Shown here piece by piece: positions 7,110-47,013 of a stretch of DNA of 64,000 nt. Source of the DNA: a candidate division WOR-3 bacterium (GTDB lineage: Bacteria; Hydrothermota; Hydrothermia; LBFQ01); NCBI GenBank assembly GCA_027050205.1, contig JALUCS010000097.1, positions 17,195 through 81,194 on the forward strand. The letters are read 5' to 3'. The notes beneath the pieces are model-generated. The model saw nothing but the letters and a program-made list of their open reading frames with translations, searched no databases and was not told the DNA's origin. Each line of letters begins with the position of its first letter. Position 1 is the stretch's first letter. The translations under genes and the position numbers were made by a program.

Positions 7110-7613
7110 CACCCGAATGCCATATGCAGGTAGGGGCGAGGACCCCCTTGCGGCAGCGATAAGCCCGCATCAAGCGGTATCTTCAAAAACCGGGGATTAA
7201 ACCTCAAAAAGCTGGTAGTTAGACTTTAAAATCGTTATACGCCCTATTTTGAACGGTGTTGCTGCGGCCTATCTACGGAAAGTTGAAGCTGGATTTCGGG
7301 AAGTGAAATTGGCCGATACGAAACTTCGTACTGACGTTCATCGGGGATGCATTGCCCTAAATACCCAATGGGGGGTATCACACCGATAGAAGGATACTCA
7401 ATTCACCGTTTGAAATATATCCTCAAAAACTGAAATTTACTTTAAGTAATTAGAACACGATATTGCAAGGAACTTGCAGTCCGATGATGAAAATTGGTAA
7501 TCCGTTCAAATTTTGATACCGAGATAAATTTTCATGCCGATGACTCCTCGGAGGTTGCAGCGTTCCATATGCCGAACACCCCGATGGGGAAGAGACAATA
7601 TCAAACAAAAAAA

Positions 7614-7687
7614 TTGCGGGGGCGGGATTTGAACCCGCGACCTCCGGGTTATGAGCCCGGCGAGCTTCCTGGCTGCTCCACCCCGCG
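7614..7687 (-). tRNA. Initiator tRNA-fMet (CAT); CCA not encoded
   Basis: CGCGGGGTGGAGCAGCCAGGAAGCTCGCCGGGCTCATAACCCGGAGGTCGCGGGTTCAAATCCCGCCCCCGCAA: C1:A72 mismatch, three G-C pairs in the anticodon stem, A11-U24 pair. Confidence 0.97.
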
Positions 7688-7759
7688 ATTTGAGGAAACT
7701 ATTATAAGGGGGAAAGGGGGGCGTGTGGGGAGGTTGTACCCGTCCTTATAATCCCCATC

Positions 7760-8485
7760 TTGAGAGTAGTAGTGGTCGTACCCACCTACAACGAGGCCGA
7801 TAACATAGCCGACCTGATAGCCGAGTTGCGCTCCGTTCGTATATTCGAACGCATAGTCCCCGACGTACTCGTAGTGGACGACAACTCCCCCGATGGCACC
7901 TGGAGGATCGTTGAAGAGATAGGGAAGAGGGACCCGGCCGTCCATCTCCTCAAGCGTCCGGGGAAGATGGGCCTCGGTTCGGCCTACGTTGAGGGGTTCA
8001 AGTGGGCCTTGGAGCGGGGATACGACGTCATCGTGCAGATGGACGCCGACTTCTCCCACAACCCGAAGGACGTCCAGAAGTTGGTTGAGGCCCTCGCTAA
8101 CTGCGACGTTGTGATAGGCTCCCGGTACTGCAACGGCGTTAGCGTCATAAACTGGCCGATAAGCCGCCTCCTCCTCTCCTACTTCGCCAACCAGTACGCC
8201 CGTCTCCTGACCGGGGTAAAGATAAACGACCTCACCGGGGGTTTCAAGGCCTTCAAGAGGGAGGCCCTTGAGGCGTTGGACCTTGATAAGATAAAGTCGG
8301 ACGGCTACGCCTTCCAGATAGAGGTGAACTTCTACCTCTGGATGAAGAGGTTCAAGATGTGCGAGATCCCGATAGTCTTCGTTGAGAGGAGGGCCGGTAA
8401 GTCCAAACTTAGCCGCTCAATCATATGGGAGGCCTTCTGGCTGGTACTCCGGCTGTTCCTGAAGCGGATAACCGGTAGGGTATGA
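7760..8485 (+). CDS. Polyprenol-phosphate mannose synthase-like glycosyltransferase (GT2, Dpm1 family)
   Basis: VVVPTYNEADNI, VVDDNSPDGT, GLGSAY, QMDADFSH, GYAFQIE; TTG start 7 nt after TATAAT. Confidence 0.92.
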   Translation: MRVVVVVPTYNEADNIADLIAELRSVRIFERIVPDVLVVDDNSPDGTWRIVEEIGKRDPAVHLLKRPGKMGLGSAYVEGFKWALERGYDVIVQMDADFSHNPKDVQKLVEALANCDVVIGSRYCNGVSVINWPISRLLLSYFANQYARLLTGVKINDLTGGFKAFKREALEALDLDKIKSDGYAFQIEVNFYLWMKRFKMCEIPIVFVERRAGKSKLSRSIIWEAFWLVLRLFLKRITGRV

Positions 8486-9432
8486 GGTTCTACGAGCTGT
8501 TGAGGGTGGGGTACGGTGTCCTTGAGGAGGCCCTCACCTCCCTCCGCCGTAGGTTCCCACGAAGTAAGGTGGTCGTCTTCACGGGGGACGAGCTCTCCCT
8601 ACCCTACGGGGAGAAGGTGGCCGAAACCGTCCGCGGCACCCTCGTAGTTGGCGAGCGTTTCCCGGAGGGCGACGGGTACGACCTCGTCCTCGGCGTTGGG
8701 GGCGGGAGCGTGATAGACCGGGCGAAACTCTGGGCCTACGAGAGGGGGGTACCCTTCGTCTCCGTCCCCACGCTGGCCTCCAGCGATGGCATAGCCTCTC
8801 CGGTCAGCGTCCTGAACGGGAAGAGCCGCTTCCTCACCCTCCCCTACGGCGTCATCGTAGAGCTGGAGATAATAGCGAAGGCACCGAGGTGGAGCCTCCT
8901 CGCCGGCATAGGGGACCTCGTATCCAACCTCTCCGCCTCCCTGGACTGGGACCGCTTCCGGGAGAAATCAAGGGAGCCGTACTCACCGGAGGCCTCGGCC
9001 ATGGCGAGGTTGGGGGCGGTCTCCCTCCTCTCCTCCCGCTCCCCTAACCCCCTTGAGGCGCTGGTGTGGGGACTCATCCTAAGCGGCCTGGCCATGAACG
9101 TAGCCGGCTCCTCAAGACCGGCGAGCGGTCCGGAGCATAAGGTGAGCCACGCCCTTGACTCCTTGGGCTACGGGGAGAAGCACGGGATACAGGTGGGCAT
9201 CTTCACCCCCCTGTTCCTGAAGTTGAACGGCTATCCGGCGTGGGAGGAGGTAAGGGAGTACCTTAAGGGGGTAGGGCTTCCGGAGTACGTCACCCTCACC
9301 GAGGAGGGGGCAGTTGAGGTCTTCAGTAAGGCCTCGGAGACCAGGCCCCACAGGTACACCGTCCTTGAGGAGGTTGGCTGGGAGAAGGTCCTTGAGGAGG
9401 CCATCAGGCTGGGTTTCGTCAGGATAGTTTAA
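8482..9432 (+). CDS. egsA: sn-glycerol-1-phosphate dehydrogenase family (EgsA/AraM)
   Basis: GVGGGSVID, SVPTLASSDGIASP, AGIGD, AGSSRPASGPEHKVSHALD, HGIQVG, RPHRYTVLE; coupled to the GT2 gene by an ATGA overlap. Confidence 0.85.
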   Translation: MRFYELLRVGYGVLEEALTSLRRRFPRSKVVVFTGDELSLPYGEKVAETVRGTLVVGERFPEGDGYDLVLGVGGGSVIDRAKLWAYERGVPFVSVPTLASSDGIASPVSVLNGKSRFLTLPYGVIVELEIIAKAPRWSLLAGIGDLVSNLSASLDWDRFREKSREPYSPEASAMARLGAVSLLSSRSPNPLEALVWGLILSGLAMNVAGSSRPASGPEHKVSHALDSLGYGEKHGIQVGIFTPLFLKLNGYPAWEEVREYLKGVGLPEYVTLTEEGAVEVFSKASETRPHRYTVLEEVGWEKVLEEAIRLGFVRIV

Positions 9433-9456: not shown

Positions 9457-10203
9457 ATGAGGGACCTCTTAAAGAGGATAAGGTCTCTGGCCTTCGTGGC
9501 CACGGTAGTTTGGGGCATAGGCCCCGGATGCCCTCCCCCTCCACCGGAACTGGCCATATGGGTTGAGAGGTACGAGGTCAGCGGCAACGGTACGAAGATG
9601 GATCTCACCTTATACGTCTCTCCACCGGCCGGCACCCTGTACATAGAGTGTTCCGACGGCAACCCCTTTGATACGGTGGTCTTAGACGAGGGGACGGACT
9701 CCCTGGAGTACTCGCTTGACAGCACCTTCCTCGCCTCCTGCTCCGACCACACCTGGACTCGCTTCACCTACACGTACGAGGGCGACAAGACGATGATGGA
9801 CCTCCTCCACAGCGACGTACCCATACGCACTATCGGGTATCCGAACCGTCCCCGTAAGGTCGTCATAGACTACAGGGATACGGTCCTCATATACGACGAC
9901 TCCTCCGGCTACGTCCTGACTTCCAACGGCTACGTCAAGTTCGCCCCCTACACCGGTGGGGTGTATGCCCCCATCCCTCCGGCCCCCTATATGGATACCC
10001 TTTCCATCACGAAGGGTGGTACGGCGGTGGTATGGATAGACCACGACCGCGACGGTGCCGAGGGGTACGATGGGGACGACCTTTTTGGCGTCCTAACGGC
10101 CACGCCCGACGGTGTAAGGTTCAGCGTCTTAGGGTTGCTCTACACCCACCCCACCCTGACCGGCTACCGGGGACTTGACCTGTGCTTCAGGTGTAGTATG
10201 TAA
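9457..10203 (+). CDS. Hypothetical (lipo)protein
   Basis: Basic n-region, hydrophobic core and GPG-C followed by poly-Pro; beta-rich; DHDRDG motif. Confidence 0.65.
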   Translation: MRDLLKRIRSLAFVATVVWGIGPGCPPPPPELAIWVERYEVSGNGTKMDLTLYVSPPAGTLYIECSDGNPFDTVVLDEGTDSLEYSLDSTFLASCSDHTWTRFTYTYEGDKTMMDLLHSDVPIRTIGYPNRPRKVVIDYRDTVLIYDDSSGYVLTSNGYVKFAPYTGGVYAPIPPAPYMDTLSITKGGTAVVWIDHDRDGAEGYDGDDLFGVLTATPDGVRFSVLGLLYTHPTLTGYRGLDLCFRCSM

Positions 10204-10656: not shown

Positions 10657-10911
10657 ATGGACAGGAACGAGATACTCAAGAAGATCAAGGACATCGCCGT
10701 GGAAGAGCTGGGAGTCTCCCCGGAGAAGGTTACGGAAGAGGCGCGCTTCATAGAGGACCTCGGAGCCGACTCCATAGGCGTGATGGAGCTGGTGATGAAG
10801 ATGGAGGAGGAGTTCGGCCTCCAGATACCCGACGAGGACATAGAGAAGCTGCGCACCGTGGACGACGTTATAGACTACATCTTAAAGAAGTTAAAGAAGA
10901 CGCAGTCGTGA
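10657..10911 (+). CDS. acpP: Acyl carrier protein
   Basis: FIEDLGADS(IG)VMELVM..EEEFG..IPDE; SD AAGGAGG and TAAAAT upstream. Confidence 0.95.
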
Positions 10912-12152
10912 GAAGGGTTGTTATAACGGGCCTTGGGGCCATAACCTCCCTCGGGGAGGACGTCCCCACCCTGTGGGAGAACCTCGTAAGGGGGAAGAGC
11001 GGAGTCTCACGGATAGAGAGGTTTGACCCCTCCGGCTTCCGGACCCAGATAGCCGCCGAGATAAAGGAGTTTGATCCGAAGAAGCGGTTCCCGAAGGGGA
11101 AGATAGGGGGGGTACCTCTACGGAAGCTGGACCGTTTCCTCCTCTACGCCCTCTGGGCGGCGGATGAGGCCATAAGGGACAGCGGTATCTTAGACTCCGC
11201 CGACCCCGACAGGGTGGGGGTCCTTATCGCCTCCGGCATAGGGGGGGTTGAGACGCTTGAGAGGGAGGTAATAACGGGATACACCCGCGGGTACAACCGG
11301 ATAAGCCCCTACCTCGTCCCTATGATGATACCGGACATGGCCTCCGGCTTAGTAGCCATAGAGTACGGCTTCAAGGGACCGAACTATACCGTCGTCTCCG
11401 CCTGCGCCTCCTCCGCCAACGCCTTGGGGGATGCCCTACGCCTCATCAGGTACGGAGACGCCGACGTTATGGTCGTTGGCGGTTCAGAGGCCCCCATCAT
11501 AAAGACAGCCCTCGCCGGATTCTCCTCTATGCGCGCCCTCTCCACCCGAAACGACGAGCCGGAGAAGGCCTCCCGCCCCTTTGACGCCGAGAGGGACGGC
11601 TTCGTGATGGCCGAGGGTGCGGCCGTCCTCATCCTTGAGGAGTACGAGCATGCGAAGAGGAGGGGGGCCAAGATATACGCCGAGCTTCTCGGCTACGGAG
11701 CCACGGCCGACGCCCACCACATAACCGCACCCTGTGAGGACGGTGAGGGTGCCGTAAAGGCTATACGCCGCGCCCTTGAGGATGCCAACGTAAGCCTAGA
11801 GGACGTTGATTACATAAACGCCCACGGCACCTCCACCAAGCTGAACGACCTCGCCGAAACGAGGGCCATAAAGAAGGCCTTCGGTCCCCATGCCTACAGG
11901 CTCGCCGTCTCCTCAACGAAGTCCATGACCGGACACCTCCTCGGAGGGGCCGGAGCTTTGGAGGCCCTGGCCACCGTCAAGGCCATAGAAACCGGCGTAG
12001 TCCCACCCACCATAAACTACGAGCATCCCGACCCCGAATGCGATTTGGACTACGTCCCCAACGAGGCGAGGGAGATGGAAGTCAGGTACGCCCTATCCAA
12101 CTCCTTCGGGTTCGGCGGCCACAACGCCGTCCTGGTCTTCGGTAAGGTCTAA
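10908..12152 (+). CDS. fabF: Beta-ketoacyl-ACP synthase II
   Basis: Catalytic VSACASS, NAHGTST and GHLLG motifs; C-terminal NSFGFGGHN. Confidence 0.97.
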
Positions 12153-25928: not shown

Positions 25929-25993
25929 CGCCCGGCCTATTCTACGGTTGCCCTTCCGTACCCCGGACACCGCACGAGCCTATAATGGCCGGT

Positions 25994-27208
25994 ATGGAGA
26001 GGTACGACGCCGTAGTAGTCGGTGGCGGACCGGCCGGCTCAATGGCCGCCCGCAGGTTGGCCGAGGGAGGGGCGAAGACCCTCCTCCTTGAGAAGCGTCC
26101 GGAGTTCGGGCAGGTGGTACAGTGCGCCGAGGGGATCTCCCACCAGTCCCTTACCCTATACTTTGACGCAGATCCGAGGTTCATAGCCTCCGTAATAAAC
26201 GAGGCCCGCTTCTACTCCCCGGACGGGGACTTCTTCACCGTCAGGAAGGAGAGGGTAGGGTACGTCCTTGAGCGGAAGATCTTTGACAGGTACGTCGCCC
26301 AGACGGCCGCCGAGGCCGGGGCAGAGCTTCTGACCAAGGCCCACTTTACGAAGCTGGAAAGGAAGGGGGAGGGCTGGCTCGTACATTTCAAGTACGGGGG
26401 GAAGGAGGAGGTGGTGGAGGCCCGCCTCGTGATAGGGGCGGACGGACCCGGCTCCAACGTTGGGAGACAGGCCGGCTTAAAGTTGGACCTCGCCCCGGAG
26501 GACTACCACTACGCCGTTGAGTACTTCCTCGTCCATCCAGCCGTGGAGGACGGGAGGATAGACTTCTTCGTGGGGGACTGGTGCTGCTGGAAGGGGTACG
26601 GGTGGAGCTTCCCCAAGGGTGGCCACTACGGGAACGTCGGGGTCGGCGTTGCCGTTCTGCCGGAGGGGGAGTCGGCCGACCTCTACCTCAACCGCTTCGT
26701 ATCCCACTACTTCAAGGGGGCGAAGATAATGGGCAAGACCAGCAGCGTCGTCCCGGTGGGTGGCCATCGGATGCAGATATACGGGGACGGCATAATGGTG
26801 GTGGGGGACGCCGCCCGCCTCGCCGAACCCATATCGGGGGGTGGGATACCGGCCGCCCTCGTCTCCGGTAGTATCGCTGGCGAGGTGGGGGCGAAGGCCC
26901 TGAAGGAGGGGGACCTGTCCGCCAACCGCCTCAAGGAGTACCACGACCGGTTCTGGAAGGTGATAGACCGGCGGGAGTACGAGTTGGCCTACGAGATAAG
27001 GCGGATATTCCTCAAGATGAACGACGACGACCTCCGCTACATCTTCTCCAAGCTCAAGCCCCTCTTTGACGGGGTTGAGATAGATGAGATAGACGCCTTC
27101 AAGTGGGCGCGGTACATCTTCACCAAGGCCCCGGACCTCCTCCTCTTCGCCGCAAAGAAGGCTGGCCCCGCCTTCGTGGATTACCTTAGGAGGGCCGTCG
27201 GGTTATGA
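25994..27208 (+). CDS. Geranylgeranyl reductase family FAD oxidoreductase (DGGGPL reductase-like)
   Basis: VVGGGPAG, CAEGIS, LERKIFD, GADG, YGWSFPKG and GDAARLAEPISGGGI motifs; ATG 25994 is 7 nt after TATAAT. Confidence 0.85.
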   Translation: MERYDAVVVGGGPAGSMAARRLAEGGAKTLLLEKRPEFGQVVQCAEGISHQSLTLYFDADPRFIASVINEARFYSPDGDFFTVRKERVGYVLERKIFDRYVAQTAAEAGAELLTKAHFTKLERKGEGWLVHFKYGGKEEVVEARLVIGADGPGSNVGRQAGLKLDLAPEDYHYAVEYFLVHPAVEDGRIDFFVGDWCCWKGYGWSFPKGGHYGNVGVGVAVLPEGESADLYLNRFVSHYFKGAKIMGKTSSVVPVGGHRMQIYGDGIMVVGDAARLAEPISGGGIPAALVSGSIAGEVGAKALKEGDLSANRLKEYHDRFWKVIDRREYELAYEIRRIFLKMNDDDLRYIFSKLKPLFDGVEIDEIDAFKWARYIFTKAPDLLLFAAKKAGPAFVDYLRRAVGL

Positions 27209-28104
27209 TGCCGTACCTCCTCGCCGCCTCTTACGTCTCAATAGAGGTGAGACTGACGGAGATGCTCATAGGGAGGAACGTCAGCGGCTACACGGCCTCC
27301 CGCAGTGGAAGGCTCTTTGACGAGGTCAAAGGGGTCATATACGTGAGCCGCCCCAACGTATGGGTCCGACTCTCCCAGCCCTTCGCCGCCTGCTCCGACC
27401 TCAAGGCCCTCTACGATGGACAGCCGGCCGACGTGCGACTCCTGGCCTCCCCCCTCCTTGAGGGGGCAATAAACGTCCTCGCCTGGAGTCCCGACAAGCC
27501 CGACCGTATGGCCGTAGTGAGGCTGAAGACCTCCCTGAAGAGCGACACCGAGAGGTACGAGATGCCCGGCTTCAAACTGCGGCTGGAGAGGGGGAAGGTG
27601 GTCAAGAAGGACACCTCCTATACCCTCGTCGTCTCCGGAAGCCGAATAAAGTGCGAGGAGGAGGAGGTTAGGCTCTTCCCCCTTGGGAAGGCCCTGAAGG
27701 ACCCGACCTTCATATGGACGGGGCGGGAGGTATGGGTATTGGACGGCAGGGACCTCTACGCGTACCGCAAGGGCAAACTGGTAAGGCTCCGCACCTTCAA
27801 GGACGAGGTCTTTCCAACGGCCGACGGCGAGGGGACGGTGGCCTTCTACTCCTCCCGCAGGGACAGGCTCCTCATCCTCCGCTTCTCCCCCGGATACTCC
27901 TCCGTCTCCTCCACCGAACTCAAGGGCATATCCAAGGACGTCCGGGGGGAGTTCGTCTCCATCCACTCCGTAAGGGAGGTTAAGAGGGGGGAGGGGATCG
28001 GAAACTGGAGCATAATCCTGACCTTCCGGAAGGACGGAAAGCTGTACTACGTCAAGGTACGGAGGGAGGGGAAAGGCTACACCGTTGAGAGCGATGGGCC
28101 GTAG
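27205..28104 (+). CDS. Hypothetical protein, probably exported and beta-rich
   Basis: 299-aa ORF coupled to the reductase by an ATGA overlap; host-like codon usage. Confidence 0.65.
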   Translation: MMPYLLAASYVSIEVRLTEMLIGRNVSGYTASRSGRLFDEVKGVIYVSRPNVWVRLSQPFAACSDLKALYDGQPADVRLLASPLLEGAINVLAWSPDKPDRMAVVRLKTSLKSDTERYEMPGFKLRLERGKVVKKDTSYTLVVSGSRIKCEEEEVRLFPLGKALKDPTFIWTGREVWVLDGRDLYAYRKGKLVRLRTFKDEVFPTADGEGTVAFYSSRRDRLLILRFSPGYSSVSSTELKGISKDVRGEFVSIHSVREVKRGEGIGNWSIILTFRKDGKLYYVKVRREGKGYTVESDGP

Positions 28105-33099: not shown

Positions 33100-33795
33100 G
33101 TGGAGTTGAAACCCAACCCCGGAAAGAGCCTAACCATAGACGTAAATGGGGAGGTGTGGGCGAGGTACCCCGTAAGGACTCATGTTATAAAACCCGGTGA
33201 GGACATAGTGGAGGTTGTGGCCCGGTACGTAAAGCCCCACCTCAAGGAGGGGGACATAGTCTTCGTGAGCGAGAAGATAGTCGCCATATCCCAGGGTAGG
33301 GCGTACCCCATAGACGAGATAAGGCCCTCCTTCTGGGCGCGCCTCCTCTCCCGCTTCGTGACGAAGAGTCCGTACGGCATAGGTCTGGGCAGCCCCTGGA
33401 CGATGGAGCTGGCCATAAGGGAGGCCGGCCTTCCCCGTATCCTCCTGGCCGCCTTTATCGCCGCCCTCACCAAACCCTTCGGCATCCGTGGCCTGTTCTA
33501 CAGGGTGGCTGGCAGGAACGTCTCGGCCATAGACGGCCCCACCCCCTACACCCTCCCCCCCTACAACCGCTACGCCAAGCTGCCACCGAAGGATCCGGAG
33601 GGTGTGGCCCGCAGAATATCCGAGAGGATAGATGCCCCCGTGGTTATAGTGGACGCCAACGACCTCGGCGTAGAGGCGCTGGGCATATCCCACCCTCAAA
33701 TATCTCCCGACTTCGTCAAGGCAGTCTTCAGGGACAACCCCCTCGGCCAGGCCTCCCAGCAGACCCCCCTCTGCATAGTTAGGCGGCTAAAGTGA
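33100..33795 (+). CDS. Coenzyme F420-0:L-glutamate ligase (CofE)-like protein
   Basis: THVIKPGEDI, GDIVFVSEKIVAISQGR, AIDG and IVDANDLG motifs; GTG 6 nt after TAGAAT. Confidence 0.75.
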   Translation: MELKPNPGKSLTIDVNGEVWARYPVRTHVIKPGEDIVEVVARYVKPHLKEGDIVFVSEKIVAISQGRAYPIDEIRPSFWARLLSRFVTKSPYGIGLGSPWTMELAIREAGLPRILLAAFIAALTKPFGIRGLFYRVAGRNVSAIDGPTPYTLPPYNRYAKLPPKDPEGVARRISERIDAPVVIVDANDLGVEALGISHPQISPDFVKAVFRDNPLGQASQQTPLCIVRRLK

Positions 33796-33834: not shown

Positions 33835-34470
33835 ATGGTAGAGACCTTGAGAGACCTGTTCGTACGCGGCGGCTTGATGATGTGGTTCATCCTCGCTGTC
33901 GCCCTTATCGCCACTGCCATCTCCATAGAGAGGTTCTACTCCCTATTCTGGAAAATTCGCGTCAATCCTATAAAACTCGTAGAGCAGGTGATAAAGATAA
34001 TAGAGGAGAAGGGCGTCAACGAGGCCATAGAGTTCCTCGCCAACCAGAAGAACCCCGTCGCCAAGGTCCTCGCCGCTGGCCTTGAGAAGGTAGGCAAGTC
34101 CAAGGTGGTGGTAGAGGAGGCTATGACCCGCAGGGCGATCCGCGAGCTGGCCTTCCTGGACCGTGGAATGATATACATCGCCGCATCCGTTACCCTCGCC
34201 CCCATCCTCGGGTTCTTGGGTACGGTCTCCGGAATGATCAACGCCTTTGACGCCATAGCCAAGGCCGGAGAGGTGGAGCCGACCGTCGTGGCCGCCGGTA
34301 TCTCCGAGGCTCTGATAACCACAGCCTTCGGTCTGATCGTGGCCGCTCCCTTCTCGCTCCTTTACGCGATCTTTATGGACAGGATCAACTCGTATCAGAG
34401 GCAGATAGAAGAGGCGGCCAACTTCCTCCTTGAGTACCTCGCCGAGGCGGGTATAGTCAGGGAGGCTTAG
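33835..34470 (+). CDS. exbB: MotA/TolQ/ExbB proton channel
   Basis: APILGFLGTVSGMINAF and AGISEALITTAFGL motifs. Confidence 0.93.
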   Translation: MVETLRDLFVRGGLMMWFILAVALIATAISIERFYSLFWKIRVNPIKLVEQVIKIIEEKGVNEAIEFLANQKNPVAKVLAAGLEKVGKSKVVVEEAMTRRAIRELAFLDRGMIYIAASVTLAPILGFLGTVSGMINAFDAIAKAGEVEPTVVAAGISEALITTAFGLIVAAPFSLLYAIFMDRINSYQRQIEEAANFLLEYLAEAGIVREA

Positions 34471-34471
34471 A

Positions 34472-34897
34472 ATGGCCATCATTCAACGGAAGAAGATGGA
34501 GGAGGAGGCTGAAATCCCGACGGCCTCCATGGCCGACATAGCCTTCCTCCTCATCATATTCTTCATGACCACGACCAACTTCGCACGGGAGAAGGGCCTC
34601 AAGTTCCTGCTACCGGAGAAGAAGGAGCAGCCGCAGGAGATAAAGATAGCCAAGAAGAACCTACTCAAGATATCCATCAACGACAGGGGGGAAGTATTCC
34701 TCAACGACGAGCAGGTAGACCCCAACCGCCTTGAGGAGGAGGTAAAGAGGCGCCTTCAGGAGAACAAGAAGCTGATAATCCTCATACGTACGCACGAGAA
34801 CGCCCCCTACGGGATGATGATCAAGGTATTTGACGCCGTAAAGGCCGCCGGAGGCAAGAAGGTCGGTCTCGGCGTAATAAAGGAGGAAGGGTCATGA
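34472..34897 (+). CDS. exbD: ExbD/TolR biopolymer transporter
   Basis: SMADIAFLLIIFFM with the conserved Asp. Confidence 0.92.
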   Translation: MAIIQRKKMEEEAEIPTASMADIAFLLIIFFMTTTNFAREKGLKFLLPEKKEQPQEIKIAKKNLLKISINDRGEVFLNDEQVDPNRLEEEVKRRLQENKKLIILIRTHENAPYGMMIKVFDAVKAAGGKKVGLGVIKEEGS

Positions 34898-35301
34898 AGC
34901 TGAAGCGGAAAAAGGAGATGAAGGCCCAGATACCGACGGCTTCCATGTCCGACATCGCGTTCCTCCTTATAATATTCTTCATGACCGTCACTGTGTTCCG
35001 GAAGTCGCAGGGCCTACCCGTCCAGCTACCCTTCGCCAAGACCACCGAGCGTATCCTCAAGCAGCGCGACCTCGCTTTCGTATGGATCGGGCGGAACGGT
35101 AAGGTGAGTGTGGACGACAACATAGTGCCGCCGGAGAAGGTGGCTATAATATTCCGTACCAAAGTTAGCGAGAACCCTACTTTGATAGTAGATATCAAGG
35201 CGGATCAGAACGTTAAGTACCGCTACGTGTATAAGGTTATGGAGGCCCTGCGGGAGGCCAACGCCCTAAGGGTGGTATTTGCTACGAGGAAGGGACAATG
35301 A
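34894..35301 (+). CDS. exbD: Second ExbD/TolR paralog
   Basis: SMSDIAFLLIIFFM and IKADQNVKY motifs. Confidence 0.92.
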   Translation: MKLKRKKEMKAQIPTASMSDIAFLLIIFFMTVTVFRKSQGLPVQLPFAKTTERILKQRDLAFVWIGRNGKVSVDDNIVPPEKVAIIFRTKVSENPTLIVDIKADQNVKYRYVYKVMEALREANALRVVFATRKGQ

Positions 35302-35957
35302 AGGAGAAGGACAAGAAGAGCCTTGTGAAGAAGATCTTCCTCGAGAGCGAGCTTGAGGAAGAGTATACGAGGGACCTTAACGTGGCCTTCACTCTATCTC
35401 TGCTTCTGGCCATAGGGGCTTTCCTCTTCGTAAAGGGTTGTAAGATGGAAAGCTACAAGCCTAAGAAGGCTCAAGAGACCGTCCTTGAGCAGATAGACAT
35501 CCAGACCCAATTTGAGGAGCCACCGCCTCCACCTCCGAAGCCCAAGGTGGCCCTGCCGGAGGAGGTGGAAGAGGTGGAGAGCGAGGCCGAACAGGACACC
35601 ATAAACATAGCCGAGACGGTGGAGTTTGACGAGGATAAGGAACCTCCTCCGCCCCCTCCTCCGAAGGTGTTTGAGGTTTTTGACGTGGACGAACCTCCGG
35701 AGCCGGTTGTGAACGTCCAGCCGGAGTACCCGGAGATAGCCCGTCAGGCCGGTCTTGAGGGCAAGGTGTTGGTGGAGGCCGTGATAGACGAGAACGGGAA
35801 CGTGATAGACGCCCGCATAAAGTACTCCGACAACGAGATCTTCAACGACGCCGCCCTAGCCGCCATGCGCAAGATGAAGTTCAAGCCGGCGAAACAGAAG
35901 GGCATACCCGTAAAGGTGAGGATAATACAGCCCTTCATCTTCAAGCTAAGGAGGTAA
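35298..35957 (+). CDS. tonB: Energy transducer TonB
   Basis: N-terminal TM, poly-Pro spacer, C-terminal PEYPEIARQAGLEGKV...FKPAKQKG domain. Confidence 0.93.
   Translation: MKEKDKKSLVKKIFLESELEEEYTRDLNVAFTLSLLLAIGAFLFVKGCKMESYKPKKAQETVLEQIDIQTQFEEPPPPPPKPKVALPEEVEEVESEAEQDTINIAETVEFDEDKEPPPPPPPKVFEVFDVDEPPEPVVNVQPEYPEIARQAGLEGKVLVEAVIDENGNVIDARIKYSDNEIFNDAALAAMRKMKFKPAKQKGIPVKVRIIQPFIFKLRR
35751..35866 (+). repeat. 116-bp direct repeat, copy 1 (TonB CTD core); copy 2 at 36147..36262
   Basis: Copies identical except GTG vs ATC at one codon (2 mismatches by eye). Confidence 0.9.
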
Positions 35958-35960
35958 AAC

Positions 35961-36368
35961 ATGAGGCGCTTCTTAATAGGGCTTCTGGCCCTGACGATAA
36001 GCATACCATCCTTCGCGGTGTATGCCGCGAAGCAGCAGAGTGCAGGTAGGTCCGGTGCCACGGTTTTGGGAGCCGACGAGGTGGATAAGGCGCCGGAGGT
36101 CATACACTACGTTGCCCCAAAGTATCCGAAAGCGGCACTTGAAAAAGGTCTTGAGGGCAAGGTGTTGGTGGAGGCCATCATAGACGAGAACGGGAACGTG
36201 ATAGACGCCCGCATAAAGTACTCCGACAACGAGATCTTCAACGACGCCGCCCTAGCCGCCATCAAGCAGACGAAGTTCAAGCCCGCCCTGGTGAACGGCC
36301 ACCCCGTCAAGGTCAAGATAACCGTACCCTTCGTATTTAGGCTGAAGGAGAACGGGGAGAGTAAATGA
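35961..36368 (+). CDS. Stand-alone TonB C-terminal domain protein with signal peptide
   Basis: MRRFLIGLLALTISIPSFA signal; no Pro-rich spacer; CTD nearly identical to the upstream TonB. Confidence 0.85.
   Translation: MRRFLIGLLALTISIPSFAVYAAKQQSAGRSGATVLGADEVDKAPEVIHYVAPKYPKAALEKGLEGKVLVEAIIDENGNVIDARIKYSDNEIFNDAALAAIKQTKFKPALVNGHPVKVKITVPFVFRLKENGESK
36147..36262 (+). repeat. 116-bp direct repeat, copy 2
   Basis: Matches 35751..35866. Confidence 0.9.
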
Positions 36369-36393
36369 GAGGCTTTTAAAGAAGGAGGCGAAT

Positions 36394-39300
36394 ATGAAAC
36401 GTTTCTTAGCGGGACTCTTTGGCCTGCTTGTGGCCCTACCGCTCTTCGGACAGTACGGAAAGATAGCGGGTAGGGTAGTCAGCGCCGAAAGTGGCGAGCC
36501 GATACCGGCCGCCGTCGTCAGGATCGTGAGCGGTCCTGCCAAGGGCGGGACCTACGCGGACGAGAACGGGTACTACGTCCTCTTGAGGCTCCCCCCCGGA
36601 ACCTACACCCTTGAGGCCAGAGCCATAGGGTACAAGCCACAGATAGTGAAGAACGTTGTGGTAGATGCCGACCACACCACCGAAGTCAACTTCAGCCTCC
36701 CCTCCAAGGCCATCAAGGTCAAGGCGGTGGTCGTAGAGGCGAAGGAGAAGATCATAAAGAAAGACGAAACGGAGAGCAAGGCCGTAGTAAAAGGTGAAAA
36801 CATTCAGAACATACCCGTCGCCTCACTGGAGCAGGCCATATCGCTCTCCTCCGGTGTCAGGGTCAGCGGCGGTGTGATACAGGTGCGCGGTGGTCGTCCC
36901 GGTGAGGTGTCCTACGTCGTAGACGGTGTGGAGGTAACGGATCCCTACACCGGGTACCAGAGCGTAGACCTCCCCCTGAACGCCATTCAGGAGGCCTCCG
37001 TCAGTAAGGGTGGCTTCGGTGCCGAGTACGGTTCCGCCTCCTCCGGTGTGATACAGGTCGCCACCCGTGAGGGTACCGACAAGTACGAGTTCTCCCTCCA
37101 GCTCTTCTCCAGCGTCGGAATGGGCGGCTTCTTCAATACGAACGTGGGCGACCCCTACATGAAGTACTTCCAGCCCCCCTACTTCTACGGTGGAGACAAG
37201 TACAAGAAGAGCGCCACCCAGACCGGTACCGAGTACTGGAAGGAGCTGGTGAGTTTTGATGAAAATAGGGCGAAAGTTTATCAGGATAATGTGGATGAAT
37301 TTTCCAAAAAGGACCCCTACTTTGCCGACTTCGCCACCTACTTCGTTGGCAGGGATTACTTCAAATATCCCTGGCGGGAGAACTACTTCCGGCCCATAAT
37401 CGGTATAGGTGGTCCCATCCTTCCCTTCTACGACGCCCTTCGTTTCTACCTCTCCTACGATTACACCACCACCCAAGGGACATTCCAAAACAGCATGAGA
37501 AAGGAAGGCTCCTACCAGTTCAAGATCTCGTGGTTCGTCACTCCTAAGGTCAAGCTCTTCTTCGGAAGCGTAGGTACGGACGGTGAGTACGCCTTCGGTT
37601 TCCGACCCGACTGGAGGCTCCTACTCCGCCGCCTGCCTGTCATAGAGTCCAAGAACAGGCAGTTCGCTGCTGGGGTCAACTACGCCCCCAGCCCCAAGTC
37701 CTACCTTGAACTCAGGTTTGGATACTTCAACACCTACCGCCTCTATCTGCCCTTCATAGACATAGACATGGACGGGGTCGCGGACTTCACGGATCGCGAC
37801 GGTGACCTCCTCGTTGAGGTGGACCCCGACATGCTCAAGCTCATCGGTCGCGCCCTTGATCCCAACCTCATCCACGAGGACAAAGGCGATTGGGTAGAGC
37901 TTCGTACCTTCTGGTGGGAGACCCCTCCGCAGGGTTATTACCCCACCTTCGTTAAAGGAACAAAGAAACAGAACTACTACCTCGGCGTGGTTAAGGGTAC
38001 GAACGACACCGTCCTCATAGCCTACGGCGATACCCTCTACGATAGCAACGGCAACCCCGTGGAGGTTGATACTGTTTTCCGGGTTAAGAACTGCTACGTC
38101 CCTGCTGAAGGTAAAGTTAAGGCCTGCACTACTAAGATTGCCTTCTCCAATCTCTACACCCCCGAACCCTACACGTGGCCGAGATGGGTCTTCTACACTC
38201 GCAACACGAAGACCTGGAGTACCCGTCTGGACTTCCTCTCGCAGGATCCCTTCGGCCTTAAAGGACACGAGTTCAAGACGGGGTTTGAGTTTTACAAGTA
38301 CGACATAAAGCAGACGGACGTTGACTACGCCTCCGGTGGAAACATCTACATGGACTTAGTAGATGCCCAACCCTACAAGGGGGCGTACTACATCCGCGAT
38401 AAGATGGAGTTTGAGGGCTTCATAGCCAACGTGGGCTTCCGGTTTGACTACTACAACCCCAACGCCTGGGTGCCGGGTGACTTCCTGAACCCCGTAAAGG
38501 ACCTGAACCTTGCCCAGATGGGACCGATATTCAACAGAGACTCCTCCTGGTGGTATCACGACAAGACTACAAGGGACACCTTCTTCCTCCGGGATCCCAA
38601 GAGGGTAAGCCCCACCTTCTACGTTAGCCCCCGTATCGGTATATCCCACCCTATATCCGAAAACGACGTTCTCCACTTCACCTACGGCCACTACTTCCAG
38701 GTGCCGAGACTCCGGTGGCTCTTCTCCAACCAGTACTGGTTCTTCACGGGTGCCTTCAACATAATAGGTAATCCATCCCTCAAGCCTGAGAAGACCATAT
38801 CCTACGAGGTCGGTATAAAGCACGCCTTCACACCCTACACCGTCATAGACGTAACGGCCTTCTACAAGGACATAGCCGACCTCGTGCAGAGTAAGTGGAT
38901 ATACATCGGAAACACCGGGTGGCAGTACACTACCTTCGTGAACCAGGACTTCGGCTCCGTCAGGGGCGTTGAGGTGAACTTCACCAAGACCCCCGGCGGA
39001 AACAACCCCTACCTCCGCTTCCTCACCCTCAACATAGCATACACCCTGCAGTTCGCTAAGGCCAGCTTCGCCAACCAGTACGCCCTCTACGCCCTCACCT
39101 GGCTGGGTATAGCCCCGGAGTACGCCGAGGAACATTACGTAAGCTGGGATCAGAGGCACGTCATAAACGCCGTGGTGTCCTACGATATTCCTCTCATCAG
39201 GAAGAACCTCCGTATGCAGTTCTTAACGGGTTACGGTACTTCGCTGATATACTCCTTCGGTACGGGTACCCCTTGGTCCCCTCCGCTGCGTAGCCCTCGC

Positions 39301-39573
39301 GACGTCCTTGAGAAGATGAACAGCCTCCGTCTCCCCGCTACGCACAACGTAGACTTCCGTATCTACAAGAGCTTCGGGCTGCCCTTCGGTGCCAACCTCC
39401 GCCTCTTCGCGGACATCTATAACCTCCTAAACGACCGCACCATAGTTGACTACGCCGATCAGAACTACTACTACTACTTCGGCGACCCCGAAGGTCCGAG
39501 CAGAAACCCAACGGTGTATAAGAGGGGTAGGCTCACGAGGTACGGCCTGCAGATAACTTGGAAGCAGAGGTAA
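36394..39573 (+). CDS. TonB-dependent receptor (FCB type, carboxypeptidase-regulatory-like N-domain)
   Basis: Signal peptide; GKIAGRV..GEP; plug VRGGRPGEVSYVVDG and GGFGAEYGSASSGVIQ; GNPSLKPEKTISYEVG; aromatic C-terminal strand. Confidence 0.93.
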   Translation: MKRFLAGLFGLLVALPLFGQYGKIAGRVVSAESGEPIPAAVVRIVSGPAKGGTYADENGYYVLLRLPPGTYTLEARAIGYKPQIVKNVVVDADHTTEVNFSLPSKAIKVKAVVVEAKEKIIKKDETESKAVVKGENIQNIPVASLEQAISLSSGVRVSGGVIQVRGGRPGEVSYVVDGVEVTDPYTGYQSVDLPLNAIQEASVSKGGFGAEYGSASSGVIQVATREGTDKYEFSLQLFSSVGMGGFFNTNVGDPYMKYFQPPYFYGGDKYKKSATQTGTEYWKELVSFDENRAKVYQDNVDEFSKKDPYFADFATYFVGRDYFKYPWRENYFRPIIGIGGPILPFYDALRFYLSYDYTTTQGTFQNSMRKEGSYQFKISWFVTPKVKLFFGSVGTDGEYAFGFRPDWRLLLRRLPVIESKNRQFAAGVNYAPSPKSYLELRFGYFNTYRLYLPFIDIDMDGVADFTDRDGDLLVEVDPDMLKLIGRALDPNLIHEDKGDWVELRTFWWETPPQGYYPTFVKGTKKQNYYLGVVKGTNDTVLIAYGDTLYDSNGNPVEVDTVFRVKNCYVPAEGKVKACTTKIAFSNLYTPEPYTWPRWVFYTRNTKTWSTRLDFLSQDPFGLKGHEFKTGFEFYKYDIKQTDVDYASGGNIYMDLVDAQPYKGAYYIRDKMEFEGFIANVGFRFDYYNPNAWVPGDFLNPVKDLNLAQMGPIFNRDSSWWYHDKTTRDTFFLRDPKRVSPTFYVSPRIGISHPISENDVLHFTYGHYFQVPRLRWLFSNQYWFFTGAFNIIGNPSLKPEKTISYEVGIKHAFTPYTVIDVTAFYKDIADLVQSKWIYIGNTGWQYTTFVNQDFGSVRGVEVNFTKTPGGNNPYLRFLTLNIAYTLQFAKASFANQYALYALTWLGIAPEYAEEHYVSWDQRHVINAVVSYDIPLIRKNLRMQFLTGYGTSLIYSFGTGTPWSPPLRSPRDVLEKMNSLRLPATHNVDFRIYKSFGLPFGANLRLFADIYNLLNDRTIVDYADQNYYYYFGDPEGPSRNPTVYKRGRLTRYGLQITWKQR

Positions 39574-39584
39574 GGAGGTAGAAA

Positions 39585-41918
39585 ATGAAGAGGTACGCTT
39601 TGCTCTTATCGTTGACAGCTCTAGCCCTCCCGCTCTGGGGTAGGGATAAGGTCCCCAGAGGCAACGCGGGAGACTTCCGCGTCCTGGCCACTTCGGACAA
39701 ACAGTACGTGGTCTCCGTAGGGGACGTATGGACGACCTTCACCAACTACGGTGAGCATGGGGACGCTAACCTGATACTTCCCGGGTACAGTAGGCCCGGA
39801 AACACTCCGGGGCAGAACGTGTACTACCTCTGGGACGGGCGAGTCTGGATAGCAGCCTTCTTCCAGGGGAACAAGTACGTGACCGTTTACGACTACGGGG
39901 TCAAGGAGTGGTCCCCGAGCCCGGACAACGGTCCCACCGGGTTCGCCTTCATCGGGGCGGACAAGTCCTTCCTTGACGTTGAGGCCCGCTATCAGGACTT
40001 CAAGAACGACACCAGAAACAGCGGGCGACACACCGGTCTCAAGGTGATAGAGAGGCTCCTCTCCTGGCCCCACGACCCCTACAACCAGTTCTTCGCTTAC
40101 GAGATGGGTATAACCTTCGTCAAAGACTCCTTTGACATATCCGACAACAAGCCCGACTCCCTGCAGATATACGTAGCCTGGACTTACGACGCCGACGTCT
40201 GCGGTGCGGACAGGGAGTACCCTCACATAGATGACCTGGTCTATTACGACGGCGCGCCCGAGGACTGTAACATCTCCCTAATGGCCCACCCTATGGGATG
40301 GGAGGACAGCGTTTCCGTCCTCATAGATACGACCATACACACCCCAGACGACGTACCTGACGGCTACACCATATGGGGTGATGATCCTAAGGAGAAAGAG
40401 ATAACGATAGCATACTACGAGTCTCACTTCGGTCCCGGTGCCCGTCCCGACTCTTTCATGCTGGTGCGTCCCAACCGTGAAAACCCCGACCAGATGGACA
40501 CGGTGTATTACTACTACCTCATCCCCCGCAACACGTCTATGATATACGACTGGGACAACCCCTCCGAGGCCGGAGATGACATCGGAGACAACGGTATGTG
40601 TAAGGGATACATCGGTATGAGGCTCATATACGCCCCGCCGAGCGACAACGACCTCTCCGCCAGCGACGGTCAGGGCGTCGGCTCCCTCTGCCGTCCCATA
40701 ACCCTCGCCAAGAGTACGGGTACTGGGGACAACGTGCGCATAATCTACCCCCACGCCCACCAGTGGTGGAACATAGAGACGGATCCCGGAGACGACAACG
40801 CCCGCTACGACTACATCGTGGGGGATCACCCCGCCACCAGGCCCTACAAGTTCGCCCCCCATCCGTTTGACTTCGGTGCCACGCAGTTTGACTACAGGTT
40901 CCTCCTCTCCACCGGCCCGTACTGGATCCACAACGGAGATACCCTCTGGTTCGTAGTGGCCGCCGGTGTGGGTGAGGGACTGAACGGAGATACGAACAAC
41001 TACTGGTATGGTGGCGATTACAAGCTCGGTCTCCGTCAGCTCATGGATCAGGCCCTTCTGGCCTACTACACCGGTGTCAACGGTCTGTGCGATCCCGCCC
41101 ACCCCTGTGGTCCCAACGAGGCCCCTCACTGGAAGATCCCCATTCCGCCTGTCACCCCTTCCCTAAGCTACGGTCCCTCCGGCGACTCCGTCATCCTCAT
41201 ATGGGACAAGAAGGCCGAGTACACCATAGACCCCATCAAGAAGGAGATAGACTTCATGGGGTACGCCATATACCGTGCCAAGTTCGGTCCCAAGTTCAAC
41301 AACCCTCCGGTTAAGATCCTCATAGACGCCGACAAGGACCCCGCCCTCATAGACTCCGTGAGGAACTACTGGATAAGCTACTGGCAGAAGGTCGCGAACG
41401 TAGATGTGAGCGATCGGATAGAGGTCAAGTCCTTCAGGGGGCAGAACACTTACATAGACAAGAACCCTCCGAAGGGCTATCCTCTCTACTACGCCGTTAC
41501 GGCCTTTGACTGGGAGCCGGCCATACACGCCAGCCTTGAGTCCTCTGCCAACAACTACCTGAAGAGTGCGGACGGATCTCCCAAGCCCATTTACGTCGGT
41601 GGTCCCGCCGGCGGGAGCGATTGGACCAAACAGGTCGTCATAGCGCCCAACCCGGTCTACGGCTCTACGAAGTGGTCCGCCACTGGTATTACCCCCGAGA
41701 TCAAGTTCTTCAACGTCCCGGCCTCTGCTCGTATAGACATATACTCCTTCACGGGGGACCACATCAAGACCTTATACAACAACCTTCCCACCACCGGTGC
41801 CGTCTCCTGGAACCTCCTGACGCCCCAGGGCCGTATGGTATCGCCCGGAATCTACTTTGTGCGCATCGTGGATAAGGACGGCAACACGTACTACGGCAAG
41901 TTCGTGGTACTTAGATAG
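39585..41918 (+). CDS. Receptor-associated exported protein with FN3-like and FlgD-Ig/T9SS-like C-terminal domain
   Basis: Signal peptide; TNYG..G...YLWDGRVW; WDKKAEYTIDP..DFMGYAIYR; PNPVY...IYSFTG...WNL...GIYFV..GKFVVLR. Confidence 0.8.
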   Translation: MKRYALLLSLTALALPLWGRDKVPRGNAGDFRVLATSDKQYVVSVGDVWTTFTNYGEHGDANLILPGYSRPGNTPGQNVYYLWDGRVWIAAFFQGNKYVTVYDYGVKEWSPSPDNGPTGFAFIGADKSFLDVEARYQDFKNDTRNSGRHTGLKVIERLLSWPHDPYNQFFAYEMGITFVKDSFDISDNKPDSLQIYVAWTYDADVCGADREYPHIDDLVYYDGAPEDCNISLMAHPMGWEDSVSVLIDTTIHTPDDVPDGYTIWGDDPKEKEITIAYYESHFGPGARPDSFMLVRPNRENPDQMDTVYYYYLIPRNTSMIYDWDNPSEAGDDIGDNGMCKGYIGMRLIYAPPSDNDLSASDGQGVGSLCRPITLAKSTGTGDNVRIIYPHAHQWWNIETDPGDDNARYDYIVGDHPATRPYKFAPHPFDFGATQFDYRFLLSTGPYWIHNGDTLWFVVAAGVGEGLNGDTNNYWYGGDYKLGLRQLMDQALLAYYTGVNGLCDPAHPCGPNEAPHWKIPIPPVTPSLSYGPSGDSVILIWDKKAEYTIDPIKKEIDFMGYAIYRAKFGPKFNNPPVKILIDADKDPALIDSVRNYWISYWQKVANVDVSDRIEVKSFRGQNTYIDKNPPKGYPLYYAVTAFDWEPAIHASLESSANNYLKSADGSPKPIYVGGPAGGSDWTKQVVIAPNPVYGSTKWSATGITPEIKFFNVPASARIDIYSFTGDHIKTLYNNLPTTGAVSWNLLTPQGRMVSPGIYFVRIVDKDGNTYYGKFVVLR

Positions 41919-41928
41919 GAGGTAGAAA

Positions 41929-42915: not shown

Positions 42916-42927
42916 GGAGGTAGTGAA

Positions 42928-46997: not shown

Positions 46998-47013
46998 AAA
47001 AGGAGGTATGAGT

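Follow-up and report, generated by a model that had tools for sequence, protein, structure and literature searches.

The 'lipid divide' between the isoprenoid ethers of glycerol-1-phosphate (G1P) in Archaea and the fatty-acid esters of glycerol-3-phosphate (G3P) in Bacteria is central to ideas on early cell evolution. Published work on the Fibrobacteres-Chlorobi-Bacteroidetes (FCB) group describes bacteria that possess geranylgeranylglyceryl phosphate synthase (GGGPS) together with digeranylgeranylglyceryl phosphate synthase (DGGGPS), generally without a glycerol-1-phosphate dehydrogenase (G1PDH); it leaves the source and handedness of the glycerol backbone open (Coleman et al. 2019; Villanueva et al. 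2021). Coleman et al. (2019) report G1PDH in two of 12 FCB phyla, and their supplementary table has candidate division WOR-3 under GGGP and DGGGP only. The paper of Villanueva et al. (2021; PMC7852524) gives neither egsA nor araM in metagenome-assembled genomes (MAGs) of Cloacimonetes, and describes Bacillus subtilis araM as supplying G1P in Escherichia coli. Here we analyze a two-gene unit of an uncultured WOR-3 bacterium, a family 2 glycosyltransferase (GT2) gene followed by a gene for a short G1PDH, which lies in a stretch of 64,000 nt (the window; coordinates without a handle are window positions) of contig JALUCS010000097.1 in assembly GCA_027050205.1. With slightly better than even confidence, we favor the reading that this short bacterial G1PDH feeds ether lipids initiated by GGGPS, and that its link to the GT2 gene is operon hitch-hiking.

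An original prediction, made from the letters of the window, had read the two genes as an archaeal-type G1PDH coupled to a polyprenol-phosphate mannose synthase. Both open reading frames (ORFs) and their overlap were confirmed at the predicted positions:

7613-7688, minus strand: tRNA-Met (CAT) gene found by ARAGORN, the upstream limit of the GT2-G1PDH transcription unit.
7760-8485, plus strand: GT2 of the Dpm1/dolichyl-phosphate mannose synthase (DPMS) type, TTG start, 241 aa.
8482-9432, plus strand: short-form dehydrogenase of the G1PDH family, ATG start, 316 aa.
8482-8485, plus strand: 4-nt ATGA start/stop overlap of the two genes, read from the sequence as translational coupling.

The junction reads ...GGTAGGGTATGAGG..., in which the ATG of the G1PDH-like gene (8482-8484) overlaps the TGA stop codon of the GT2 gene (8483-8485) directly downstream of a purine-rich stretch. 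A search of the plus strand between the two genes revealed no promoter-like or terminator-like site.

Profile searches placed the 316-aa protein in the G1PDH family. Its best NCBIfam model is the G1PDH model NF002022 (E = 9.9e-58, 195.8 bits, residues 66-301), which scores 136 bits ahead of GldA (60 bits), with aroB at 16 bits; in Pfam, the match is confined to an Fe-ADH_2 segment in the middle of the protein (residues 64-135, E = 4.7e-21). Among solved structures, the best match by sequence is the G1PDH of Methanocaldococcus jannaschii (4rgq, E = 6.5e-39), followed by a Clostridium acetobutylicum protein (3ce9) and the G1PDH of Pyrobaculum calidifontis (5fb3), with weaker matches to B. subtilis AraM (9h4x, E = 1.2e-21) and to GldA chains (1e-15 to 1e-6). 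These family matches, like those of the GT2 described below, are far beyond chance. The AlphaFold2 model, built from a 32-sequence alignment, has a predicted local distance difference test score (pLDDT) of 94.1 and a predicted template modeling (TM) score of 0.92. Structural similarity search using Foldseek revealed a two-domain fold of the DHQS-like/Fe-ADH type, with M. jannaschii G1PDH (4rgq) as the best match (TM 0.87, root-mean-square deviation 2.7 Å, E = 3.8e-23). Nine chains of this enzyme and 3ce9 make up the top 10 (TM 0.82-0.87), compared to 0.81 for AraM, 0.80 for Thermotoga maritima GldA (1kq3) and 0.74-0.81 for GldA chains overall.

The motifs quoted in the original prediction (AGIGD, SGPEH, HG and RPxRYTVLE) all stand at their predicted places, together with two nucleotide-binding elements. 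All of the following are on the plus strand:

8692-8709: GVGGGS, residues 71-76, the glycine-rich dinucleotide-binding loop; G73-G75 are invariant in the 32-sequence alignment.
Residues 100-107: SSDGIASP, the nucleotide-binding SxDG element.
8902-8916: AGIGD, residues 141-145; D145 is the first metal ligand by alignment to 4rgq.
9109-9138: SSRPASGPEH, with SGPEH at residues 215-219 (9124-9138); H219 is the second metal ligand.
9178-9186: KHG, residues 233-235; H234 is the third metal ligand.
9343-9369: RPHRYTVLE, residues 288-296, the C-terminal family motif; R291 and T293 are invariant.

In the alignment with 4rgq, the ligand positions are taken by D145, H219 and H234, which are invariant in both the 32 and the 110 aligned sequences. 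The ligands of the M. jannaschii enzyme are Asp148, His226 and His247; the shift in numbering would agree with a 33-residue tag on the deposited chain. The nucleotide-binding residues are also kept (GGG at 73-75, D79, K82, S100 and D102), and the family motifs SSRPASGxEHxxSH and RPxRYT are both present and invariant in the alignments. From these residues we conclude that the catalytic machinery of the short G1PDH is in all likelihood intact.

Phylogenetic analysis further supported the assignment. A first tree of 114 rows comprised 11 proteins of the window's own family (f1, two genera), 18 other WOR-3 proteins, 80 named loci, a plasmid protein of Clostridium butyricum, one long WOR-3 row (L132) and three GldA rows; the f1 gene L025, which is broken, did not enter it. 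For a second tree, 61 rows remained after removal of L075, L132, three duplicates and 48 rows from Archaea. Both are quick trees with support from the Shimodaira-Hasegawa-like approximate likelihood ratio test (SH-aLRT), and both take GldA from plasmid records as outgroup; no 3-dehydroquinate (DHQ) synthase row was included, as the genome has no aroB match. In both trees, the three GldA rows are split from all G1PDH-family rows (111 or 58) with a starred support of 100. The NF002022 score, this split and the best fold match to M. jannaschii G1PDH bear out the prediction that the second gene is a G1PDH rather than a GldA or a DHQ synthase.

The label 'archaeal-type' needs qualification. In both trees, the short form falls outside the archaeal side, and its identity to the archaeal sequences among the fetched loci does not exceed 43%. 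In the 114-row tree, the 64 archaeal rows stand on one side of a branch with a support of 83, and in the 61-row tree Archaea stand on one side with a starred 96. The f1 clade has a starred support of 100 in both trees. It groups with WOR-3 rows of the same class (families f3 and f8) in the 114-row tree at an unstarred 92 that carries a long-branch warning, whereas in the 61-row tree it is part of an open basal polytomy beside the f3 pair. On its sequence, the protein can safely be taken as a member of the G1PDH family and as no recent archaeal import, and accelerated vertical descent within WOR-3 would be the simplest reading.

The distribution of the gene was surveyed in 272 species genomes of the phylum, the window's own included, at a homologue threshold of E <= 1e-5. 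The assembly itself is a WOR-3 MAG of 2.05 Mb in 135 contigs, 93.5% complete and 0.9% contaminated, and has only one G1PDH-like gene. A G1PDH homologue occurs in 124 of the 272 genomes. The short form is present in all 11 other f1 genomes (56-82% identity; one copy is in two pieces, in a 57%-complete genome). The sister family f2 has no homologue in any of its seven genomes, and other WOR-3 families carry forms of ~350-360 aa that share 36-47% identity with the short form. In the database, the closest proteins are 14 full-length clusters that group tightly (316-326 aa, 54-98% identity) and one 236-aa fragment, beyond which identity is at most 47%; the named members of this group are labelled candidate division WOR-3. 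The fragment (P0015, 63% identical to the short G1PDH) is source-labelled Thiovulum sp. ES and may come from a mis-binned contig. Public annotation (JGI names) already labels some close relatives as G1PDH, so that the family assignment as such is not new.

Enzymes that could use G1P are encoded elsewhere in the genome. A GGGPS was found above its cut-offs, along with a geranylgeranyl reductase within the window:

Contig C7, 6128-6691: GGGPS, 226 aa; TIGR01769 166.6 bits against a cut-off of 161.55, TIGR01768 146.1 against 113.25.
25985-27208, plus strand: geranylgeranyl reductase family protein, 407 aa; TIGR02032 220.3 bits, cut-off 158.8.

The GGGPS gene sits at the tail of the nuo operon and overlaps nuoN by one base. 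The second-best model of the reductase is digeranylgeranylglycerophospholipid reductase (208 bits, below its cut-off), and on these matches the protein is a candidate saturase of isoprenoid ether lipids. Its gene, ~16.5 kb from the G1PDH gene, is translationally coupled to an ORF of 299 aa (27205-28104, plus strand) without a Pfam or NCBIfam match. Among the seven UbiA-family genes of the genome, one (L005; contig C83, 57052-58032) matches DGGGPS-type models best and is kept in all 11 other f1 genomes; as a query at E <= 1e-25 it found matches in 32 of the 272 genomes, and the family diverges so fast that this count is uninformative outside f1. Another UbiA-family protein (L008:1402-2247, minus strand; G000:C7:37201-37881) scores 238.8 bits against the 234-bit cut-off for decaprenyl-phosphate phosphoribosyltransferase, which is unexpected in the WOR-3 phylum, and adjoins a transketolase-like N-terminal half. 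CdsA, two polyprenyl synthases, an IspDF fusion and a single CDP-alcohol transferase (L193:1432-2013, plus strand; G000:C40) are also present; the last scores 138.7 bits against 180 for archaetidylinositol-phosphate synthase and 132.2 against 170 for bacterial PIP synthase. GpsA and PlsY are above their cut-offs, and thus the bacterial G3P route is present. Of the lipid genes named for a search in the original prediction, those for GGGPS, GpsA and PlsY were therefore recovered outright, that for DGGGPS as a UbiA protein below the cut-offs, and CarS was not found; the genome does encode G1P users downstream of the dehydrogenase, namely GGGPS, the DGGGPS-like UbiA and the geranylgeranyl reductase, and the lack of any such enzyme, which the original prediction had set as a refuting finding, is thus not observed.

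Across the phylum, GGGPS occurs in 165 of the 272 genomes and tends to accompany G1PDH:

G1PDH present, GGGPS present: 109 genomes.
G1PDH present, GGGPS absent: 15 genomes.
G1PDH absent, GGGPS present: 56 genomes.
G1PDH absent, GGGPS absent: 92 genomes.

GGGPS is thus found in 109 of 124 G1PDH-positive genomes versus 56 of 148 G1PDH-negative ones, a trend rather than a test, as related genomes are not independent.

On gene content and phyletic co-occurrence, we propose the following pathway. Judging from the conserved residues and the fold, the 316-aa protein most likely reduces dihydroxyacetone phosphate to G1P with NAD(P)H at its Asp/His/His metal site, and GGGPS most likely uses this G1P to form the first isoprenoid ether bond. 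The DGGGPS-like UbiA prenyltransferase would act next, then CdsA in a genome with no CarS, then the single CDP-alcohol transferase, and the geranylgeranyl reductase would saturate the chains. The products would be archaeal-style ether lipids beside ordinary G3P/fatty-acid lipids made through GpsA, PlsY, acyl carrier protein (ACP) and FabF.

Several observations weigh against this proposal; they concern the later steps of the pathway, the genomic context and the divergence of the dehydrogenase. As to the later steps, the DGGGPS-like UbiA scores 113-138 bits against equivalog cut-offs of 269-296, and its orthologues outside f1 are just 29-38% identical. CarS (PF01864) gave no match in the genome, whose completeness of 93.5% makes such absences provisional. 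G1PDH can also serve another purpose, because 15 G1PDH-positive genomes, including nine of the 11 in family f19, have no GGGPS. Moreover, according to Coleman et al. (2019), there is no evidence that the ether lipid made by B. subtilis G1PDH and PcrB is used in membrane phospholipids, so that a mixed membrane is not demonstrated by the genes on their own. The short G1PDH could accordingly act as AraM does with PcrB: G1P would be made and used by GGGPS, and the pathway would stop at a single-chain prenylglyceryl phosphate or a derivative of it, a minor non-bilayer lipid, with no archaeol-type diether. The only experimentally documented bacterial pair of G1PDH and a GGGPS-family enzyme behaves in this way (Guldan et al., as given in Coleman et al.), and the low UbiA scores and the lack of CarS would fit. 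We nevertheless consider such an early stop rather unlikely, as the GGGPS exceeds the TIGR01769 GGGP equivalog cut-off, the geranylgeranyl reductase is above its own and has the digeranylgeranylglycerophospholipid reductase as its second-best model, and all 11 other f1 genomes retain the UbiA candidate; CdsA is present, and bacterial enzymes encoded by the MAGs of Villanueva et al. (PMC7852524) can, according to these authors, carry the later steps.

The genomic context turns on the GT2. It matches PF00535 (E = 1.7e-31), and of the solved structures Pyrococcus furiosus DPMS is by far the closest (5mlz, E = 2.8e-36, residues 1-232; ArnC 1.4e-8, GtrB 4.7e-7). It starts with PTYNE and has a DAD motif at residues 95-97, in agreement with the prediction that the first gene is Dpm1-like, and it scores below every NCBIfam equivalog cut-off. 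No transmembrane segment was found in the protein (maximum 19-residue hydropathy 1.1), which ends where the transmembrane domain of DPMS begins. The human DPM1 type likewise has no membrane anchor, and a missing anchor does not exclude a lipid-phosphate mechanism. We predict that the protein is the catalytic domain of a polyprenyl-phosphate hexosyltransferase.

The GT2 is far more widespread than G1PDH. An orthologue of ~240 aa is present in 253 of the 272 genomes, with one match in nearly all of them and 51-66% identity in the listed rows outside f1, and it occurs in families f6, f7, f14, f28 and f29, which have neither G1PDH nor GGGPS. Its adjacency to G1PDH was observed in all 12 f1 loci, in none of 18 other WOR-3 G1PDH loci and in none of 80 named loci elsewhere; in eight GT2 loci of other families, none of the window's other flanking genes stands beside the GT2. 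Neighbors within two ORFs of the GT2 were counted in 46 loci outside f1 (eight and 38 of a further 40, two having been dropped because ORF calling missed the GT2):

Second GT2: 14 loci.
Bac_transf (WbaP-like phosphoglycosyl transferase): 9 loci.
YfhO-family membrane protein: 5 loci.
IspD plus IspF: 4 loci.
PlsY-GpsA fusion: 2 loci, both in family f31.
CDP-alcohol transferase: 2 loci.
PlsC-like acyltransferase: 1 locus.
G1PDH: 0 loci.

A second GT2, Bac_transf or YfhO lies near the GT2 in 16 of the 46 loci, and the window's genome has a YfhO-like gene, a Bac_transf gene and a mannose-1-phosphate guanylyltransferase elsewhere. As with CsbB/YfhO of Bacillus, the pairing of GT2 with YfhO presumably reflects synthesis of a polyprenyl-phosphate sugar and then an extracytoplasmic transfer step. 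The two f31 loci (L051:1861-3483, minus strand; L167:3237-4889, plus strand) have the Dpm1-like GT2 followed by a 540-550-aa PlsY-GpsA fusion, which joins a G3P acyltransferase and a G3P dehydrogenase in one chain and mirrors the f1 pair; the genes overlap in L051.

The neighbors of G1PDH elsewhere are different again. The 18 other WOR-3 loci have a nucleotidyltransferase that matches the cytidylyltransferase half of IPCT/DIPPS best in three cases (L026:2496-3287, minus strand; L031:542-1261 and L038:542-1261, plus strand; each directly upstream of G1PDH), a CofE-like gene in three, a family 4 glycosyltransferase (GT4), a polysaccharide-export gene and an SLH-like gene in two each, and FabH in one; GGGPS or UbiA stands beside G1PDH in none of them. 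An IPCT-like nucleotidyltransferase also adjoins G1PDH in five of the 80 named loci (L064, L065, L073, L101 and L109), ~250-1000 nt upstream, in Patescibacteria, Melainabacteria, Coprothermobacterota, Flavobacteriales and one uncultured bacterium. This pairing suggests that G1P can enter a CDP-glycerol route distinct from ether lipids. In the window's genome, such a route found no support: a tblastn search with two of these nucleotidyltransferases gave no match, and the five PF12804 matches are GlmU, IspDF, KdsB, mannose-1-phosphate guanylyltransferase and one unclassified protein. The CofE-like gene (PF01996) lies directly downstream of G1PDH in three loci of family f26 (L033:2831-3559, L035:2342-3073 and L039:2856-3581), and a 64%-identical homologue is located in the window at 33100-33795 (plus strand), 24 kb from the G1PDH gene.

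That G1PDH in other WOR-3 families and other phyla stands beside a cytidylyltransferase and not beside lipid genes counts against our proposal. The scattered glycerolipid and isoprenoid neighbors of the GT2 in other families, in turn, give a small probability to a looser functional link of the GT2 with glycerolipid synthesis. One could thus imagine that G1P and the co-translated GT2 serve one pathway, for example toward a glycosylated G1P-based lipid phosphate or a glycerol-phosphate glycan. The coupling is kept in 12 of 12 family genomes, the GT2 is also coupled to the PlsY-GpsA fusion in f31, and G1PDH elsewhere lies near a cytidylyltransferase (3/18 WOR-3 and 5/80 named loci), GT4 and polysaccharide-export genes. 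We find a shared pathway quite improbable, since the GT2 is present in 253 of 272 genomes with or without G1PDH, its nearest solved relative is a dolichyl-phosphate mannose synthase, its YfhO and Bac_transf neighbors point to polyprenyl-phosphate acceptors, the genome yielded no IPCT-like nucleotidyltransferase, and its sole CDP-alcohol transferase resembles inositol-phosphate lipid synthases. The original prediction had named ether lipids, glycolipids or an envelope polymer as uses of G1P; users for ether lipids are encoded, whereas a pathway shared with the GT2 is unsupported. Nor does the coupling itself hold up as a sign of G1P chemistry. The GT2 is a phylum-wide housekeeping gene, found regardless of G1PDH and usually beside YfhO, Bac_transf or a second GT2, and its coupling to G1PDH, confined to f1, is therefore not a pathway signal. 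This distribution also speaks against GT2 and G1PDH as an obligate pair. The link is best read as an arrangement for co-expression in an operon, not as shared chemistry. Under our proposal, the GT2 would be the polyprenyl-phosphate sugar synthase of envelope glycosylation throughout the phylum; in the ancestor of f1, the G1PDH gene would have come to lie directly behind it and would now be a translationally coupled passenger. The GGGPS gene, last in the nuo operon, is likewise placed behind housekeeping genes. Such hitch-hiking would tie the supply of G1P to envelope biogenesis without any chemistry between G1P and sugars.

The remaining observations that weigh against the proposal concern the dehydrogenase itself. 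Its NF002022 score of 195.8 bits is less than half of the curated cut-off of 413, and the first ~65 residues lie outside the profile match. Other bacterial G1PDH members likewise fall under this cut-off (226-310 bits), which was passed in three of the 12 control genomes that gave a match; the f1 proteins, with 169-196 bits, have the lowest scores of all family members scanned. Alignment and model together revealed that the short G1PDH is 20-45 residues shorter than its relatives, with a shorter N-terminus and two trimmed loops, and that its nucleotide-binding domain has lost the helix between strands three and four, where residues 57-67 form a loop. The residue after the GGG loop is Ser in place of Lys/Arg. 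Of 55 columns conserved at >=85% across 99 further members of the family (a count that omits the three GldA rows and the very long row L132), the f1 consensus keeps 50, and the five changes are P4Y, L158R, A159F, E236I and I294V. E236I adjoins the metal ligand H234 at a position where 87% of the other family members have Glu; the same Ile occurs in another WOR-3 G1PDH-like protein (L041). The stem of f1 is ~1.5 changes per site long (1.5 in the 114-row tree and 1.57 in the 61-row tree). The long stem, E236I and the four other changes leave room for altered substrate or cofactor use. That the enzyme was neofunctionalized outright, and after deletion in its N-domain and rapid divergence acts on another polyol, a polyol phosphate or an aldehyde, would fit this stem, the lowest NF002022 scores, the Ile beside the metal ligand and the new genomic context, yet seems most improbable for a protein that keeps 50 of 55 conserved columns, SSRPASGxEH and RPxRYT included, that shares its Ile236 with L041, that is the only G1PDH-like protein of a genome that keeps GGGPS, and that occurs together with GGGPS in all 11 other f1 genomes.

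A different departure from the family is seen in the WOR-3 family f42 (L132:1316-2749, plus strand, in G263; G261:C48), whose G1PDH-like protein of 477-499 aa has a long extra C-terminal part. The match of the L132 protein to NF002022 (185.7 bits) is limited to profile positions 12-284, and its branch is the longest of the tree (3.18).

Downstream of the unit, the following genes lie on the plus strand:

9457-10203, plus strand: ORF of 248 aa, 24 nt 3' of the G1PDH-like gene, with a signal/lipobox-like N-terminus.
10657-10911, plus strand: ACP of bacterial fatty-acid synthesis, 1.2 kb downstream, named from reading the translation.
10908-12152, plus strand: FabF of bacterial fatty-acid synthesis, named from reading the translation.

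The 248-aa ORF gave no match in Pfam and NCBIfam scans. A tblastn match was found in three of 12 f1 loci, the window's own counted, which indicates partial conservation within the genus, and the ORF is probably outside the function of the GT2-G1PDH unit. DNA of the locus occurs in several hydrothermal-vent metagenome runs; among the 12 sequencing runs listed, none is an RNA run carrying it. Further along the window, an ExbB-ExbD-ExbD-TonB-TonB set and a TonB-dependent receptor of 1059 aa are followed by five large ORFs (328-931 aa) without a Pfam match (33835-48663, plus strand), which together may form an uptake locus. At 60153-63494 (minus strand), six paralogues of 185-189 aa stand in tandem and for the most part overlap; all belong to the Uma2 family (PF05685, putative restriction endonuclease), five with E values of 1e-35 to 1e-38 and one with 1.8e-13.

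Compared to the published work examined, three things are new here, namely how widely G1PDH occurs in the phylum, its short and divergent form, and the operon specific to f1; a search of open-access full text and bioRxiv for literature linking WOR-3 to G1PDH or archaeal-lipid genes found only Coleman et al. 2019. In WOR-3, 124 of the 272 species genomes have a homologue, for the most part alongside GGGPS, and the locus offers a candidate for the 'missing G1PDH' of FCB-related bacteria. The compact divergent enzyme of this one vent-dwelling family could be expressed and assayed directly, and if it is active, G1PDH, GGGPS, UbiA and geranylgeranyl reductase would make a concrete set for asking whether natural bacteria make heterochiral membranes. 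A bolder form of the proposal, which we put forward tentatively and hold to be possible but doubtful, is that f1, and perhaps ~40% of the species of the phylum, have their own G1P supply and make saturated isoprenoid G1P diether phospholipids beside G3P lipids, a natural heterochiral mixed membrane; the short G1PDH would then be the step reported missing in Cloacimonetes, and coupling to the GT2 would keep G1P synthesis constitutive. The negative result matters as well, in that 'G1PDH coupled to mannose synthase' is an attractive reading that is not a pathway signal.

Set against known systems, the short G1PDH shares with archaeal EgsA (M. jannaschii 4RGQ/4RGV and P. calidifontis 5FB3) the fold, the three metal ligands, the GGG loop, the SxDG element and the motifs SSRPASGxEH and RPxRYT. 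They differ in that identity is ~30%, that EgsA has ~335-350 aa compared to 316 aa here, and that the short form lacks the N-domain helix and has Ser for Lys/Arg after GGG and Ile for Glu after the HG ligand; moreover, the short form is on the bacterial side of the tree, and its host bacterium also has GpsA and PlsY. The partner GT2 aligns over residues 1-232 with the catalytic domain of P. furiosus DPMS (5MLZ), including the PTYNE start and the DAD motif; however, it has 241 aa and no transmembrane domain, compared to 374 aa in the solved chain. The nucleotidyltransferase-G1PDH pairs of three WOR-3 and five named bacterial loci share the dehydrogenase family with the window, where the partner is instead a Dpm1-like GT2 in a genome with no such nucleotidyltransferase found.

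Similar to B. subtilis, in which the Ni2+-dependent G1PDH AraM (9H4X) occurs with PcrB, the bacterium has a G1PDH and a partner of the GGGPS/PcrB family in its genome, and the two dehydrogenases superimpose with a TM of 0.81. They share just 21% identity in the structural alignment, the sequence match has E = 1.2e-21 compared to 6.5e-39 for EgsA, and AraM is ~80 residues longer. The partner enzyme here matches the GGGP synthase equivalog, not a heptaprenyl type, and the genome adds the DGGGPS-like UbiA and the geranylgeranyl reductase. With the 'mixed membrane' gene sets of Ca. Cloacimonetes, the WOR-3 genome shares its FCB relationship and the combination of GGGPS, a DGGGPS-like enzyme and CdsA with bacterial G3P and fatty-acid genes. 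The Cloacimonetes, which the original prediction had cited as encoding archaeal ether-lipid enzymes, are a weaker precedent than it supposed: the GGGPS and DGGGPS-like genes are there, whereas the MAGs have neither egsA nor araM (PMC7852524). The WOR-3 phylum, by contrast, does have a G1PDH homologue, in 124 of its 272 species genomes.

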